Virus record (IMG/VR): IMGVR_UViG_2660238423_000013
Coordinates: 1 to 5,811 of that record
DNA from: a virus
Taxonomy: Duplodnaviria > Heunggongvirae > Uroviricota > Caudoviricetes
Strand: one strand, 5' to 3'
Length of the DNA: 5,811 nucleotides
In this document: one piece after another, positions 1 through 5,811 of the stretch
Layout of the letters: each line of letters begins with the position of its first letter
Numbering within the stretch: position 1 is the first letter of the stretch
The notes under the pieces: generated by a model
Database searches by the model: none
What the model was told of the DNA's origin: nothing
The model's input: only the letters and a program-made list of their open reading frames with translations
Program-made: the position numbers and the translations under genes

Positions 1-2763
<2,763 letters not shown>

Positions 2764-2789
<26 letters not shown>

Positions 2790-3309
2790 TCAGCAACCCC
2801 GGTATCAGTTCATCCAGCGCGGCTGCTTTGTTCATGGCTTTGATGATATCCCGTTTCAGGAAATCAACATGTCGGTTTTCCAGTTCCGGAAAACGCCGCT
2901 GCACCGACAGGGGGATCCCGTCGAGAATACTGGCAATTTCACCTGCGATCCGCGACAGCACGAAAGTACAGAATGCGGTTTCCACCACTTCAGCGGAGTC
3001 TCTGGCATTTTTCAGCTCCTGTGCGTCGGCCTGCGCACGCGTAAGTCGATGGCGTTCGTACTCAATAGTCCCTGGCTGGAGATCTGTCTCGCTGGCCTGC
3101 CGCAGTTCTTCAACTTCCCGGCGCAGCTTTTCGTTCTCAATTTCAGCATCCCTTTCGGCATACCATTTTATGACGGCGGCAGAGTCATAAAGCACCTCAT
3201 TACCCTTGCCACCGCCTCGCAGAACGGGCATTCCCTGTTCCTGCCAGTTCTGAATGGTACGGATACTCGCACCGAAAATGTCAGCCAGCTGCTTTTTGTT
3301 GACTTCCAT
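2764..3309 (-). CDS. nu1: Terminase small subunit gpNu1 (181 aa; cosB-binding winged-HTH protein)
   Basis: The 181-aa product MEVNKKQLADIFGASIRTIQNWQEQGMPVLRGGGKGNEVLYDSAAVIKWYAERDAEIENEKL... matches lambda Nu1 in length and, by recollection, sequence. It sits immediately downstream of cosB/cosN on the minus strand, as in lambda. Confidence 0.95.
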
Positions 3310-3486
3310 TGTTCATTCCACGGACAAAAACAGAGAAAGGAAACGACAGAGGCCAAAAAGCTCGTTTTCAGCACCTGTCGTTTCCTTTCTTTTCAGGGGG
3401 TGTTTTAAATAAAAACATTAGGTTACGGCGAAGAAGAACGGAAACGCCTTAAACCGGAAAATTTTCATAAATAGCGAAAACCCGCG
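3310..3486 (-). promoter_or_regulatory. cosB: terminase (Nu1) binding region with R3, an IHF-site-like AT-rich segment, R2 and R1
   Basis: The reverse complement of 3310..3498 reads gggcggcgacctcgcgggttttcgctatttatgaaaattttccggtttaaggcgtttccgttcttcttcg...gaaaagaaaggaaacgacaggtgctgaaaacgagctttttggcctctgtcgtttcctttctctg, which matches the lambda left end as I recall it except for a few substitutions. R-element cores (ggaaacg / cgtttcc) lie at 3339-3348 (R1), 3375-3390 (R2, opposite orientation) and 3439-3446 (R3). The AT-rich segment at about 3395-3430 sits where lambda has IHF site I1. Confidence 0.85.
3334..3390. repeat. Perfect 16-bp inverted repeat pair, agaaaggaaacgacag (3334-3349) and ctgtcgtttcctttct (3375-3390): cosB R1/R2 elements
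   Basis: Direct inspection: the two 16-mers are exact reverse complements separated by 25 bp. They correspond to the gpNu1-binding R1 and R2 elements of lambda cosB. Confidence 0.85.
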
Positions 3487-3498
3487 AGGTCGCCGCCC
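3487..3498 (-). other. cosN: 12-nt cohesive-end sequence (GGGCGGCGACCT on the minus strand), terminase nicking site
   Basis: The + strand has aggtcgccgccc at 3487-3498, the reverse complement of GGGCGGCGACCT, which is the lambda 12-nt 5' overhang. The flanking ~60 bp at 3499-3560 (rc ...cattatcattttcgcgggtcctttccggcgatccgacaggttacgg) resembles the lambda right end where cosQ lies. Confidence 0.9.
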
Positions 3499-3750
3499 CG
3501 TAACCTGTCGGATCGCCGGAAAGGACCCGCGAAAATGATAATGGTTATCAGTTGCAGCAAATCCAGTTTCTTCCACCATCGCACCGGACCAGCGACCATG
3601 AGGGGACAACGCCGCGCTCCGTTTACGCGGTAAACCCCGGTGTGTATCGTTTTTGATTATCCCCGCACACTCGCGCAGAGTAGTCTCCCTGTCGGGCTGC
3701 GGTCTCTGTTAATGAGGGAATACAGCGACGATACGGCGCATCAGCAAAAC

Positions 3751-4218
3751 TTAGTTCAGGCACTGAGTGCGGATATAGTCCTGTGCCCCTTCCAGCTGCT
3801 TCTGCATTGTCATCAACCGTTCTCTGAGGATGAAATAATCCCGTGTAACGGTGTCTGCCAGTTGGGGGCCGGTTGCATTATCCACGCGGGCGGTGCCGGT
3901 GGCTTCACGCACGGGACCTGGACAGGTGGCGTTGATCCGCAGGCTGCGGTGACCAGCGGCAACGTCAGCGCGAAGAGTTTCATTTTCAGCTCTCGCATCG
4001 GCTAATTCCCTCGAGTATCTGGCATCAAGTGCAGCAACATCACGCTGGCGCTGCTGCATATCAGTAATGGTTGCATTTGCCAGCTCCAGCTCACTGACTT
4101 TTTTATCGCGCTGCTCTTTGTAGGTTATGGCGTTATCACGGTAATGATTCAGCCCCAGACTAAGCGCACCACAGGCCACCAGCAGGGCAATGATGACCAC
4201 GCACAGTACGCGGTTCAT
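3751..4218 (-). CDS. Rz: Rz i-spanin (inner-membrane spanin subunit, 155 aa)
   Basis: It has an N-terminal TM segment (MNRVLCVVIIALLVACGALSLGL) followed by NHYRDNAITYKEQRDKKVSELELANATITDMQQRQRDVAALDARYSRELADARAENETLRADVAAG..., clearly homologous to lambda Rz. The Rz1 frame is embedded within it. Confidence 0.9.
   Translation of the reverse strand: MNRVLCVVIIALLVACGALSLGLNHYRDNAITYKEQRDKKVSELELANATITDMQQRQRDVAALDARYSRELADARAENETLRADVAAGHRSLRINATCPGPVREATGTARVDNATGPQLADTVTRDYFILRERLMTMQKQLEGAQDYIRTQCLN
3813..3998 (-). CDS. Rz1: Rz1 o-spanin (outer-membrane lipoprotein spanin subunit, 61 aa), fully embedded in Rz in another reading frame
   Basis: MRELKMKLFALTLPLVTAACGSTPPVQVPCVKPPAPPAWIMQPAPNWQTPLHGIISSSENG has a signal peptide with a lipobox-like TAAC and a proline-rich mature region (CVKPPAPPAWIMQP), as in lambda Rz1. 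It sits out of frame inside Rz, the hallmark embedded spanin architecture. Confidence 0.85.
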   Translation of the reverse strand: MRELKMKLFALTLPLVTAACGSTPPVQVPCVKPPAPPAWIMQPAPNWQTPLHGIISSSENG

Positions 4219-4219
4219 T

Positions 4220-4318
4220 TCACCACCAGCGTATCTGACCGATGAAATAACCGGAGGCCATAATCACAAACACCCGCCAGATAAGAATGAACTTCCAGGT
4301 AGATAATTTTTCAGCCAT
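4220..4318 (-). CDS. Hypothetical small hydrophobic protein (32 aa from ATG at 4318; possibly 45 aa from an in-frame GTG at 4357); function unknown
   Basis: Not in the ORF track because it is under 60 aa. The minus strand reads ATG GCT GAA AAA ... TGG TGG TGA = MAEKLSTWKFILIWRVFVIMASGYFIGQIRWW. GGGAG lies 9 nt upstream of the ATG. An in-frame GTG 13 codons further upstream is preceded by AAGGAG at 5-nt spacing and would give MFDFSKLIREIRVMAEK.... The stop TGA ends 1 nt before the Rz ATG. There is one ~20-residue hydrophobic stretch. I recognise no homolog, and it could be a chance ORF. Confidence 0.3.
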   Translation of the reverse strand: MAEKLSTWKFILIWRVFVIMASGYFIGQIRWW

Positions 4319-4393
4319 CACTCGAATCTCCCGAATCAGTTTGCTAAAATCAAACACACTTTCTCCTTTGACTTTTCCAGAGTCAGGAAACAC

Positions 4394-4434
4394 AAAACCC
4401 CGCTTGCAGCCAACAAACGGGGTTTTTACTTTTA
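4394..4434. terminator. Intrinsic-terminator-like hairpin, potentially bidirectional, in the R-Rz spacer
   Basis: aaaacccCG (4394-4402) pairs with CGgggtttt (4418-4426), a 9-bp stem with 5 G:C pairs and a 15-nt loop. On the + strand it is followed by tacttttatt. On the minus strand the stem is followed by UUUUGUGUUUCC. Confidence 0.5.
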
Positions 4435-4516
4435 TTCACTTAGTTTTTGTCAGTTCGCAGGATTTCGTGTTATCCGTCCGTGTGAGCAAACCTCATTTTT
4501 CAGCAAAATATTCTTC

Positions 4517-5050
4517 TTATCTGTCGATTCCCCAGCACGCCAGCGCGCTCTCCTGGTCACGACGGGATACCTGACCGTAACAGTTGTTTGAACGAATACG
4601 GCAGTCTCTGCCACCGTCCTTAATCCACCAGCGAATCGCTTCGCAGGCACCTTTTCGATCACCTGCATTAATTCGTCTGTAAAACGTCGACGGGAAACAC
4701 TTACCGGGACCAATGTTGTACGGACAGAATGACGCGATCCCCGCTTTCTGGGGTTCGGTCAGCGGCACTTTGATGTTTTTCTCCACCCATGCCAGCGCCT
4801 TATCACGCTCAATGGCGTTAACCCGGTCGCATTTTTCCTTCGACAACTTCATGCCCGGAACGACAGGTTTACCATCCACCAAGATGGCACCGCGGCAGAT
4901 GGTCCAGATACCCGCACCATCACGGTATGCCGTGGTGTGGTTACCTTCCTTTTCATCCAGAAACTGGTCGAGGATTTCAGGCGCAGACGCCCCTGCACCA
5001 ATCAGCGCCAGAACGGCAGCCGACAGGCCGTATCTGATTTTTGCGTTCAT
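4517..5050 (-). CDS. R: Endolysin R: SAR-type phage lysozyme of the T4-lysozyme (GH24) family, 177 aa
   Basis: The N-terminus has a Gly/Ala-rich weakly hydrophobic segment (YGLSAAVLALIGAGASA) typical of signal-arrest-release domains. The catalytic E-x8-D-x5-T spacing (E in DEKEG, D in YRDG, T in IWTI) matches T4 lysozyme E11/D20/T26. Overall it resembles the 177-aa lysozymes of phage 21 / Qin (RrrQ) / Stx phages as I recall them. It is not the lambda R transglycosylase. Confidence 0.9.
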   Translation of the reverse strand: MNAKIRYGLSAAVLALIGAGASAPEILDQFLDEKEGNHTTAYRDGAGIWTICRGAILVDGKPVVPGMKLSKEKCDRVNAIERDKALAWVEKNIKVPLTEPQKAGIASFCPYNIGPGKCFPSTFYRRINAGDRKGACEAIRWWIKDGGRDCRIRSNNCYGQVSRRDQESALACWGIDR

Positions 5051-5100
5051 GGATATTTATCAGGATTTATCGATTTCAAATCCCTGGATATGTTAAGTCT

Positions 5101-5445
5101 TCAGGCCAGCGGTGGAGTCTTCAGAGAACCAGTAATTATTCCCGGTAGTTTTCCTCTGTAGGTTATCAACACATCCTGCGCCTCTAAAATGATGGGCCGC
5201 TTTTCCGGCAACGGACCATCCCCTTCACATAACCCGGCAGCAACATCCATGAAAAACTGCTTCGCCTGCTTTTTCGCCTCAGCTTCGTAAAACTCCAGCG
5301 TGGCTCCTTCAGTACGGTCAAGACTAATCGCCACATCTGGCAACAACAGTGACGGATACCCACCAATTTCCAGTGCCACAGTAACAGTAATCTTATCCGG
5401 GTAATTATTTATCCCTTTAACAACCAGTTCGTATTTTTTCTTCAT
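5101..5445 (-). CDS. Uncharacterised 114-aa protein located between holin and endolysin; probably the YdfR/DUF1327-type protein that occupies this slot in Qin-like prophages
   Basis: The ATG at 5445 is preceded by GGGGAGAG with 7-nt spacing, and this SD overlaps the S stop codon TAA (5450-5452), indicating translational coupling to S. The product MKKKYELVVKGINNYPDKITVTVALEIGGYPSLLLPDVAISLDRTEGATLEFYEAEAKKQ... is acidic, with no TM segment or signal peptide. Assignment to the YdfR family rests on gene position (essQ-ydfR-rrrQ order in E. coli K-12 Qin) and memory, not on a search. Confidence 0.75.
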   Translation of the reverse strand: MKKKYELVVKGINNYPDKITVTVALEIGGYPSLLLPDVAISLDRTEGATLEFYEAEAKKQAKQFFMDVAAGLCEGDGPLPEKRPIILEAQDVLITYRGKLPGIITGSLKTPPLA

Positions 5446-5449
5446 CGCT

Positions 5450-5665
5450 TTACTCTCCCCGCGCCGCCTTACGACGGTCCTCTCTGATTTTGAAATACAG
5501 GTTAGTAAGATACGTCAGCAGGCCAAACAGCAGACTCCCCAGCACACCTATCGCCACCCACTGGGACGGAGAGACTTTGTCCAGCAGCTGCAGTAACCAG
5601 TATCCCGTCCCCACCGCTGACGTGGTGTATGACACACCCGTTGTGATTTTTTCCATCTGGTACAT
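5450..5665 (-). CDS. S: Holin S, class II pinholin of the phage-21 S21 type, with dual-start motif (71 aa from ATG 5665; 68 aa from ATG 5656)
   Basis: [71 protein letters not shown] has two TMDs and a charged C-terminus, closely resembling S21 as I recall it. GGGAG lies 8 nt upstream of the first ATG. The longer ORF-track version (5450..5776, 108 aa) is an unsupported upstream extension that runs through the terminator hairpin. Confidence 0.9.
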
Positions 5666-5726
5666 ACCCCGTCTCCCGTTATCCGTAACCGGCTCATTTA
5701 AACCGTCTGGTCTGTTTCCTCCGGCT

Positions 5727-5763
5727 CTACAAAAATAATGTCCATCATTTTTAATGGACACTA
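5727..5763 (-). terminator. tR'-like intrinsic terminator in the late-operon leader upstream of S
   Basis: The minus strand reads ...tagTGTCCATtaaaaatgATGGACAttatttttgtagag. It forms a 7-bp perfect stem (extendable to 10 bp with a G:U pair), an 8-nt loop, and a U-rich tract UUAUUUUUGU. It lies ~65 nt upstream of the S start, where lambdoid phages place the tR' terminator that Q antiterminates. Confidence 0.5.
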
Positions 5764-5811
5764 TCGTATGAAACACCGGACCTGGATCACTGAAGCTTTA
5801 CGTCTTCACCG

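Follow-up and report, generated by a model that had tools for sequence, protein, structure and literature searches.

What does a small soluble protein do between the holin and the endolysin of a lambdoid prophage? The question is raised by a 114 amino acid (aa) open reading frame (ORF) on the minus strand of IMG/VR record IMGVR_UViG_2660238423_000013, of which positions 1 to 5811 (5811 bases, hereafter "the window") were analysed. The ORF lies between a gene for an S21-type holin (S) and a gene for an endolysin (R). An earlier reading of the DNA letters alone (hereafter the original prediction) took it for a YdfR-like member of family DUF1327 and listed lysis timing, endolysin control and an unrelated moron among its possible roles. 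We propose, with a probability of roughly 0.4, that the gene is the orphaned late-operon half of a mobile two-gene cassette and encodes a protein binder made late in infection, not a part of the lysis machinery. The DUF1327/YdfR gene itself and its place between S and R are already known, and ordinary for E. coli lambdoid prophages. New here, and absent from the papers and libraries that could be searched, are a family not linked to lysis, its position as one flank of a convergent cassette with swappable cargo, and the window copy as a deletion derivative of such a cassette.

A DUF1327 gene under selection

The ORFs of the window were listed with their translations, and the proteins were searched against profiles of Pfam, PHROG, NCBIfam and PADLOC. 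The ORF in question is the following.

5101-5445, minus strand: YdfR/DUF1327-family ORF, 114 aa plus stop, ATG to TGA (Pfam PF07041; PHROG 406, 2091 and 1085)

Its product matches DUF1327 over residues 1-112 with 155.4 bits (cut-off 25, E-value 4.7e-46), which bears out the identity first proposed. It matches no other Pfam family, no NCBIfam family and no PADLOC family, and searches of PDB sequences with the protein and with its profile came back empty. A deep profile search of 1.84 billion representative proteins returned 94 matches, all of them DUF1327, with no link to a larger superfamily among them. The protein is soluble and acidic (isoelectric point, pI, 5.5), with a non-hydrophobic N-terminus and no match to a holin or a spanin in Pfam or PHROG. 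The absence of a transmembrane segment and of a catalytic motif, noted before from the letters alone, was confirmed by these searches and by a maximal Kyte-Doolittle mean over 19 residues of only 1.18.

The gene is as widespread as had been supposed. A 450-bp (base pair) query covering the ORF matches 3006 of 5426 complete E. coli genomes, with a median of 2 copies and up to ten. Many E. coli chromosomes, with O145 and O103 among their serogroups, carry identical DNA (100% over the 450 bp around the ORF); in them the Prokaryotic Genome Annotation Pipeline (PGAP) calls the gene "YdfR family protein", and ORF47 of phage BP-4795 is the same protein. Across alleles, the ratio of nonsynonymous to synonymous substitution rates (dN/dS) in the N-terminal domain (first 70 codons) is 0.2-0.45. 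Since this holds even between alleles saturated at synonymous sites, we regard the ORF as a real gene under purifying selection.

Relatives occupy varied positions in late operons

Stand-alone versions of the conserved core, 72-86 aa long, were found by the deep search in prophages of Citrobacter, Pantoea, Cronobacter and E. coli; searched one by one, all 20 of these distant relatives match DUF1327. Their genes are located as follows.

L007, L008 and L012: between the lambda-type tail genes I and J
L005: after lambda gpK-like and gpI-like tail genes (gpI by sequence resemblance only, with no Pfam match)
L006: between M and L
L010, L011 and Citrobacter L017-L020: just after the tape measure gene
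L009: after Rz/Rz1 of an S21-holin cassette in which holin and lysozyme are directly adjacent
Cronobacter L021-L023: after an Rz-family gene
L015: between Q and a holin paired with a GH19 endolysin
L013 and L014: upstream of Holin_8/Holin_3_7 and a lysozyme

All stand-alone DUF1327 genes face the direction of the late operon. Given this common direction and the varied positions, the family is tied to late expression rather than to the combination of a pinholin and a signal-anchor-release (SAR) endolysin. Whether DUF1327 always accompanies an S21-type pinholin and a SAR endolysin, a survey suggested in the original prediction, is thus answered in the negative: no obligate co-occurrence is seen across the relatives, which argues against a lysis-specific role.

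Within E. coli, the interval between S and R serves as a slot for variable cargo. The Stx2a (Shiga toxin 2a) phage L004 has kept the holin and the sequence upstream of R, and between them lies a 213-aa protein without the DUF1327 core, which has only C-terminal extension modules in common with long forms of DUF1327. The lysis region of phage phiSTEC1575-Stx2k (L024:1281-3299) has two holin systems: after an S21-type holin, DUF1327 and reverse genes come a second pair of holins and an endolysin of the M15 peptidase type.

A convergent cargo gene behind a conserved leader

In every distant locus, a small gene of 79-104 aa lies on the opposite strand, 4-35 nucleotides (nt) past the DUF1327 gene. 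Such a convergent partner is also present in the E. coli phages Evi, Chlobot, phiSTEC1575-Stx2k, PhiR5_1 and Stx2 phage 86. These partners, which we call cargo genes, fall into at least six families (PHROG 25324, 10490, 2572 and 1853, a 90-aa family and an 87-91-aa family), all of unknown function and mutually unrelated by hhalign. A search of PADLOC-DB 2.0 at E-values up to 0.01 gave no match for the window protein, its long forms, the cargo of PhiR5_1 and of Stx2a phage 12E129, or the distant relatives. Representative cargo genes between the leader described below and the 3' end of DUF1327 are listed here.

L003:3584-3844, minus strand
L004:3648-3962, minus strand
L016:3244-3540, minus strand
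L017:3266-3553, minus strand
L025:1811-2083, minus strand
L051: a 91-aa ORF

Nearly all cargo genes are preceded by the same leader of about 80 nt. It consists, in order, of a -10-like box (TATGTT/TATGGT), the sequence TCAGCCC, a covarying hairpin, a purine-/pyrimidine-rich stem around an invariant AUGGCUG loop, an AAGGA Shine-Dalgarno sequence and the ATG. TCAGCCC is invariant in the 12 aligned leaders with the full motif and reads TCACCCC in PhiR5_1; in related loci a TATGTT/TATGGT/TATTGT box stands 6-7 nt before it. RNAalifold pairs the invariant 5' UCAGCC with an invariant GGCUGA downstream. Examples of the leader and its helices are as follows.

Leader copies: L016:3535-3617, L008:4543-4628, L017:3548-3627 and L006:4481-4562, all minus strand
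Hairpin 1: 7 pairs, 93% of cells paired, 5 pairs changed on both sides (compensatory)
Long-range helix UCAGCC/GGCUGA: 6 pairs, 97% of cells paired, essentially invariant and therefore uninformative as to covariation
Third stem: 6 pairs, 69% of cells paired, of ambiguous register

The covariation score observed for the leader was reached by none of 500 shuffles. A covariance model built from it found 33 matches in 423 kilobases (kb), all opposite to the late-gene strand and just beyond a DUF1327 gene or a cargo of the L004 type. No Rfam family matches the leader at the gathering threshold or at E-values up to 10.

The association also holds in the reverse direction. IMG/VR was searched with two of the cargo families. 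Of the 40 loci returned, 36 carry DUF1327 in convergent orientation at 4-35 nt beyond the stop codon of the cargo, and the leader was present in all 23 loci tested for it. The constant parts of the cassette are therefore, as judged by sequence comparison, DUF1327 on one side and promoter plus leader on the other, the ORF between them being swappable. Exceptions to the pairing exist. In L123-L125 (L123:1811-2137, minus strand) the ORF opposite leader and cargo is 108 aa long and does not belong to DUF1327; L134 has no small convergent gene, its cargo lying directly against tail gene I.

Between the cassette promoter region and the next tail gene, L008 (4640-4722), L005, L006 and L012 carry a GC-rich hairpin and, after it, a run of T (GCCCAC-TAAAT-GTGGGC-TTTTTT when read with the late genes). 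The element resembles an intrinsic terminator, one that late transcription would read through only when antiterminated.

The window copy as a deletion derivative

The window itself has no convergent gene, and the covariance model of the full leader finds no match in it, nor in K-12 Qin, mEp460, Tritos or BP-4795. The window was aligned with PhiR5_1, Stx2 phage 86, Stx2a phage 12E129 and a 72-aa E. coli locus (alignment A7), with the following features.

5051-5100, plus strand: spacer between the ORF and R, aligning with the cargo promoter region; -35-like TTATCG at 5067-5072 and -10-like TATGTT at 5089-5094 (putative promoter)
5101-5115, plus strand: TCAGGCCAGCGGTGG, remnant of the 5' end of the cargo leader (TCAGCCCGCCAGCGGTGG); likely deletion joint

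Compared with PhiR5_1, which has a 211-aa form together with its partner, homology runs down to window position 5110 and resumes at 5103, the window lacking 566 bp. On the plus strand, positions 5051-5115 align with the promoter region of the partner and the first ~15 nt of the leader (TCAG..GCCAGCGGTGG), and the complement of this leader start encodes the end of the ORF, P-P-L-A-stop. Because of the 566-bp gap and of this leader remnant encoding the ORF end, the alignment identifies the 114-aa form (the "LA" form) as a deletion derivative, which has lost the cargo gene, most of its leader and the C-terminal extension of the ORF. An illegitimate joint would agree with a short stretch of similarity around CCACCG. 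The intact "LA" form accounts for 60 of 80 sampled loci and is the commonest form among loci with the window N-domain allele.

A conserved core and a variable tail

The protein divides into two parts.

5230-5445, minus strand: codons 1-72, conserved acidic DUF1327 core domain (AlphaFold2, alignments, dN/dS)
5104-5229, minus strand: codons 73-114, variable tail CEGDGPLPEKRPIILEAQDVLITYRGKLPGIITGSLKTPPLA, predicted disordered

AlphaFold2, run on residues 1-76 with a diverse alignment, predicts the core with a predicted local distance difference test (pLDDT) of 90.6 and a predicted template modelling score (pTM) of 0.79, as strands 5-14, 18-27 and 38-43 followed by a helix at 50-71; in a model of the full protein, residues 74-114 have a pLDDT below 50. 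The family and structure searches recommended earlier therefore end in DUF1327 with a confident core and a poorly predicted tail. Alignments A1 and A5 show Y5, Y53-E54 and A57 in the conserved core, of which Y5, E54 and A57 are invariant across the DUF1327 family. The core is acidic family-wide (median pI 4.84; 19 of 20 relatives below pI 7). A search of BFVD returned nothing significant and gave the core no assignment to a known fold family, and the window protein shows neither a profile match to the double-stranded RNA-binding domain (dsRBD, PF00035) nor its helix-strand-strand-strand-helix fold or basic surface. The conserved functional unit is thus an acidic 72-residue domain of three strands and a helix.

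The family is a mosaic beyond this unit, only residues 1-72 being common to all members. At least three unrelated tails follow residue 72, namely the window tail, the tail of K-12 YdfR and a tail ending "...SITGC". In many alleles the window tail runs on into a coiled-coil and globular extension of 60-215 residues, giving forms of 176, 183, 211, 268, 287 and 329 aa. The dS of the tail against other alleles is low (0.1-0.27), so the tail segment has been shared recently; its dN/dS is 0.3-0.8.

Some further variants were observed. The longest forms (268-329 aa) combine the coiled coil with a C-terminal globular domain of ~130 aa (PHROG 1085 and 36381; L004:2995-3636, plus strand; L029:1501-2307, plus strand; P0216), and in Stx2a phages this C-terminal coiled-coil/globular part occurs without the DUF1327 core. 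P0001 (196 aa) and P0002 (169 aa) are versions of the window protein with internal tandem duplications of the N-domain; both are singleton clusters and possibly assembly artefacts. An ORF of 70-80 aa between the tape measure gene and M (L006:3323-3565, plus strand; L123:2529-2741, minus strand) is rich in strands towards its N-terminus and closes with a C-terminal helix that ends in ...QLKDLVAGF/QLKQLIAGF. It has no Pfam match and might be a remote analogue of the DUF1327 core.

Comparison with known systems

The nearest named relative is YdfR of the E. coli K-12 Qin prophage (P76160, b1555). The two proteins share their Pfam family and the 72-residue N-terminal domain. The slot of the gene is the same, since ydfR starts 4 nt after an S21-type holin gene (essQ) and precedes a lysozyme gene (rrrQ), and it is likewise an orphan with no convergent partner. 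The two cores are only ~46% identical and the tails unrelated: the 103-aa YdfR ends at a stop codon overlapping the start of rrrQ, whereas the window ORF has a different 42-residue tail and is then followed by a 50-nt spacer.

The statement that such proteins are functionally uncharacterised is nearly true, one recent paper reporting that YdfR binds RNase E. In a two-hybrid screen for RapZ-like binders, YdfR was recovered three times, as residues 1-72 (PMC13232886, RNA Biology 2026). Both this fragment and full-length YdfR gave a two-hybrid signal with RNase E 1-597, and FLAG-tagged Rne 1-598 co-purified with Strep-YdfR, as did DNase-resistant nucleic acid (PMC13232886). In another screen, overexpression of ydfR raised the minimum inhibitory concentration of streptomycin threefold (PMC12924614). 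An envelope-integrity phenotype attributed to ydfR does not appear in the main text of PMC3879167; it could stem from polarity of the Keio cassette on rrrQ. Experiments have reported a single partner for any DUF1327 member, the catalytic N-terminal half of RNase E. The window core corresponds to the YdfR 1-72 fragment that suffices for this binding, the binding data being for YdfR alone.

RapZ is a 284-aa tetrameric, kinase-like adaptor of RNase E for GlmZ, with a defined small RNA (sRNA) as ligand. Like RapZ, YdfR binds the catalytic N-terminal domain of RNase E and co-purifies with RNA (PMC13232886). Unlike RapZ, DUF1327 is an acidic domain of 72 aa, and there is no relation in sequence or fold between the two.

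A system of similar logic is found in phage phi80. Its atiEcA, an adjacent 76-aa late-operon gene, prevents autoimmunity (He et al. 2024, PMC11364771), and loss of ati from phi80 lowered the titre and was followed by suppressors in its partner. The gene lies beside an opposite-strand gene expressed in the lysogen, taiEcA, which acts in defence through inhibition of tail assembly, within the Q-dependent late transcript and between lysis and packaging genes; in the TaiSalB/AtiSalB pair of Salmonella the counter-defence protein binds its cognate Tai, and the same has been proposed for each pair (PMC11364771). Full DUF1327 cassettes share this "noncontiguous operon" layout in convergent form, while the window has no opposite-strand gene and retains only the promoter/leader remnant. 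The phi80 genes are divergent with overlapping 5' ends, in contrast to the convergent DUF1327 and cargo, and Tai is ~200 aa long against 79-104 aa for the cargo. Homology was rejected, hhalign giving a probability of at most 0.7% for AtiEcA against DUF1327 and at most 0.5% for TaiEcA against every cargo family. In the absence of a sequence relation and with the divergent arrangement, the resemblance is one of logic and not of family. The phi80 gene orf65 is suggestive by position as a convergent partner; it proved to be an Arg-rich ORF overlapping orf66 and unrelated.

Among the roles first listed for the window gene, that of an unrelated moron exploiting late expression is the only one that fits the comparative data. 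Classical morons, such as HK97 gp15, have their own promoter and terminator and are expressed from the prophage. DUF1327 resembles them in its patchy distribution and as an accessory gene inserted among the essential late genes of lambdoid phages. It does not qualify as a classical moron, because it has no promoter or terminator of its own and is read with the late operon. In relatives it is half of a convergent two-gene cassette; the description of a moron fits the convergent cargo better.

Proposed mechanism

The mechanism that we propose takes its logic from phi80 TaiEcA/AtiEcA, whence a late small protein counteracting a neighbour expressed in the lysogen. The cargo would be expressed in the lysogen from its own promoter, and the DUF1327 protein only during lytic growth, in the window presumably by translational coupling to S. 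The DUF1327 core may then serve as a small protein-binding neutraliser or modulator that switches off the cargo or a host factor. The orphan copy of the window could still work in trans, its target being a sister prophage that carries cargo or a component of the host. In its most general form, the proposal is that DUF1327, the ~80-nt leader (UCAGCC, covarying hairpin, GGCUGA) and a swappable ORF constitute an undescribed mobile cassette of enterobacterial lambdoid late operons, in which late DUF1327 silences or neutralises the lysogen cargo, perhaps through recruitment of RNase E to the leader. Orphan copies, that of the window included, would in this case be free-standing counter-measures, effective in trans in polylysogens. 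This broader statement is distinctly tentative, and we hold it with some doubt.

The gene is often multicopy, present in more than half of complete E. coli genomes, in most Stx1 and in many Stx2 phages, and located within the toxin-release operon. Freed from a tie to lysis, its study would shift from lysis timing to the binding partners of DUF1327 and the roles of cargo expressed in the lysogen. The leader with its variable cargo may constitute a new prophage hotspot of accessory genes, which might serve in defence and bring their own counter-measure. The cassette also offers a natural RNA or protein ligand for the reported YdfR-RNase E interaction and makes the function of YdfR testable.

Alternative explanations

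Several observations weigh against an orphaned cassette half that binds a protein. Judged from gene order, the adjacency of DUF1327 and cargo could reflect shared mobility alone, and a single fold would have to face cargo proteins of at least six unrelated kinds. Among E. coli forms the commonest, which include the window form and K-12 YdfR, have no cargo, yet their ORFs are intact; therefore, either a cargo-independent function must exist or these copies are decaying. A constant target, be it a host factor or the leader RNA, would fit better, because of the one fold against so many cargos and of the predominance of orphans in E. coli. The model borrowed from phi80 finds no sequence relation to lean on and a pair of opposite arrangement, and neither of the two cargo proteins searched (PhiR5_1 and Stx2a phage 12E129) matches a PADLOC defence model. 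Overproduction of YdfR changed few transcripts (PMC13232886).

The thought of a constant target leads to RNase E. The protein could be a modulator or adaptor that binds the catalytic half late in infection and alters RNA decay, either as an acidic RNA mimic blocking the enzyme or as a RapZ-like presenter of RNA, with the cargo leader as the candidate RNA. The bacterial two-hybrid (BACTH) signals of YdfR and of its residues 1-72, together with the co-purification of Rne 1-598 and nucleic acid (PMC13232886), argue for such a role, and so do the conservation of the same domain in the window protein, the genetic linkage of a conserved structured RNA to the family, and the ease with which one target accommodates one fold, many cargos and many orphans. 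We nevertheless consider it unlikely. The acidity of the domain in nearly all relatives, unlike classical RNA-binding domains, speaks against direct RNA binding of the dsRBD type; the few transcripts affected by YdfR overproduction, with growth unaffected, also weigh against it, and the authors were unable to exclude a contaminating protein as the cause of RNA retention (PMC13232886). The window allele, moreover, shares only ~46% of residues 1-72 with the protein for which binding was reported.

Also improbable, in our judgement, is a functionless remnant, that is, a deletion derivative persisting in a recombinogenic and recently spread segment, the translation of which would help ribosomes on from S to R. 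The 566-bp deletion agrees with it, as do the predicted disorder and few substitutions of the tail, with its dN/dS of 0.3-0.8, the many frameshifted, fused or truncated versions in databases, and carriers that are mostly prophages, many of them defective. The constraint on the N-domain between synonymously saturated alleles speaks for a functional product, however, as does the dominance of the intact 114-aa form, and orphan forms with three different tails are kept in the functional phages mEp460, Tritos and BP-4795. A regulator of lysis would be a cytoplasmic protein made with S that binds the cytoplasmic tail of the holin or the SAR endolysin and tunes timing, a role similar to that of T4 RIII, a soluble partner of holin T. 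The slot itself invites this explanation: in every E. coli locus examined an invariant 4 nt separates the start from an S21-type holin, the DUF1327 stop overlaps the endolysin start in Qin and Tritos, and phiSTEC1575-Stx2k keeps S21 holin and DUF1327 together though its endolysin is an M15 peptidase. We find it quite improbable all the same. Relatives reside in tail operons and beside unrelated holins and endolysins, the S21-type holin of L009 adjoins its lysozyme with DUF1327 placed after Rz, and the slot is filled by unrelated cargo in Stx2a phages such as L004. The many truncated and extended mosaic forms, the lack of a membrane segment in the window protein and the normal growth upon overproduction of K-12 YdfR (PMC13232886) likewise weaken the earlier suggestions of lysis timing or endolysin control.

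The lysis region of the window

The window comes from the late region of a lambdoid, Stx-type E. coli prophage, and all its genes are on the minus strand, in the order S21-type holin, DUF1327 ORF, endolysin, a 57-aa ORF, Rz and Rz1, a cos-containing gap, the terminase genes Nu1 and A, and W. The features flanking the DUF1327 ORF confirm its placement between an S21-type pinholin and a SAR-like endolysin.

5450-5665, minus strand: S21-type class II holin (pinholin family), 71 aa, dual-start motif MYQM (Pfam PF04971, "Bacteriophage P21 holin S", E-value 1e-32)
5446-5460, minus strand: S/ORF junction GGGGAGAG-TAA-AGCG-ATG, by direct sequence reading; GGGGAGAG within the last S codons at 5453-5460, S stop TAA at 5450-5452, AGCG spacer at 5446-5449, ORF ATG at 5443-5445
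4517-5050, minus strand: endolysin R, 177 aa, T4-lysozyme family (Pfam PF00959, Phage_lysozyme, E-value 2.2e-24; PHROG 7, endolysin)

In E. coli chromosomes, PGAP names S "class II holin family protein". The N-terminus of R has a hydrophobic stretch rich in Gly and Ala, which is SAR-like.

The original prediction placed the ORF start right after S, with a Shine-Dalgarno sequence overlapping the S stop codon, and concluded that the two are co-expressed stoichiometrically. The first part stands: 4 nt separate the S stop from the DUF1327 ATG, a gap found in 75 of 75 measurable loci among 80 related IMG/VR loci and in every annotated E. coli phage compared. Strictly speaking, the Shine-Dalgarno sequence does not overlap the stop but abuts it, the GGAG being contained in the final two codons of S, 9 nt before the ATG. 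Translational coupling to S is plausible from this layout; stoichiometric co-expression goes beyond what the junction can tell. A scan for promoters and terminators around 5101-5445 gave no excess above chance, and folding of the 50-nt spacer between ORF end and endolysin start (5051-5100) nothing above chance.

Some minor observations concern the neighbourhood. The sRNAs PasA, PasC and PasD lie upstream of S, outside the S-R slot. The start of R has no recognisable Shine-Dalgarno sequence within 15 nt (…CCTGATAAATATCC ATG; window 5051-5075, minus strand), and the ~23 nt before its ATG are invariant across all loci with an S-R slot in alignment A7. The 57-aa ORF between endolysin and Rz (4220-4393, minus strand) matches PHROG 6632; BP-4795 has an ant gene in that interval.

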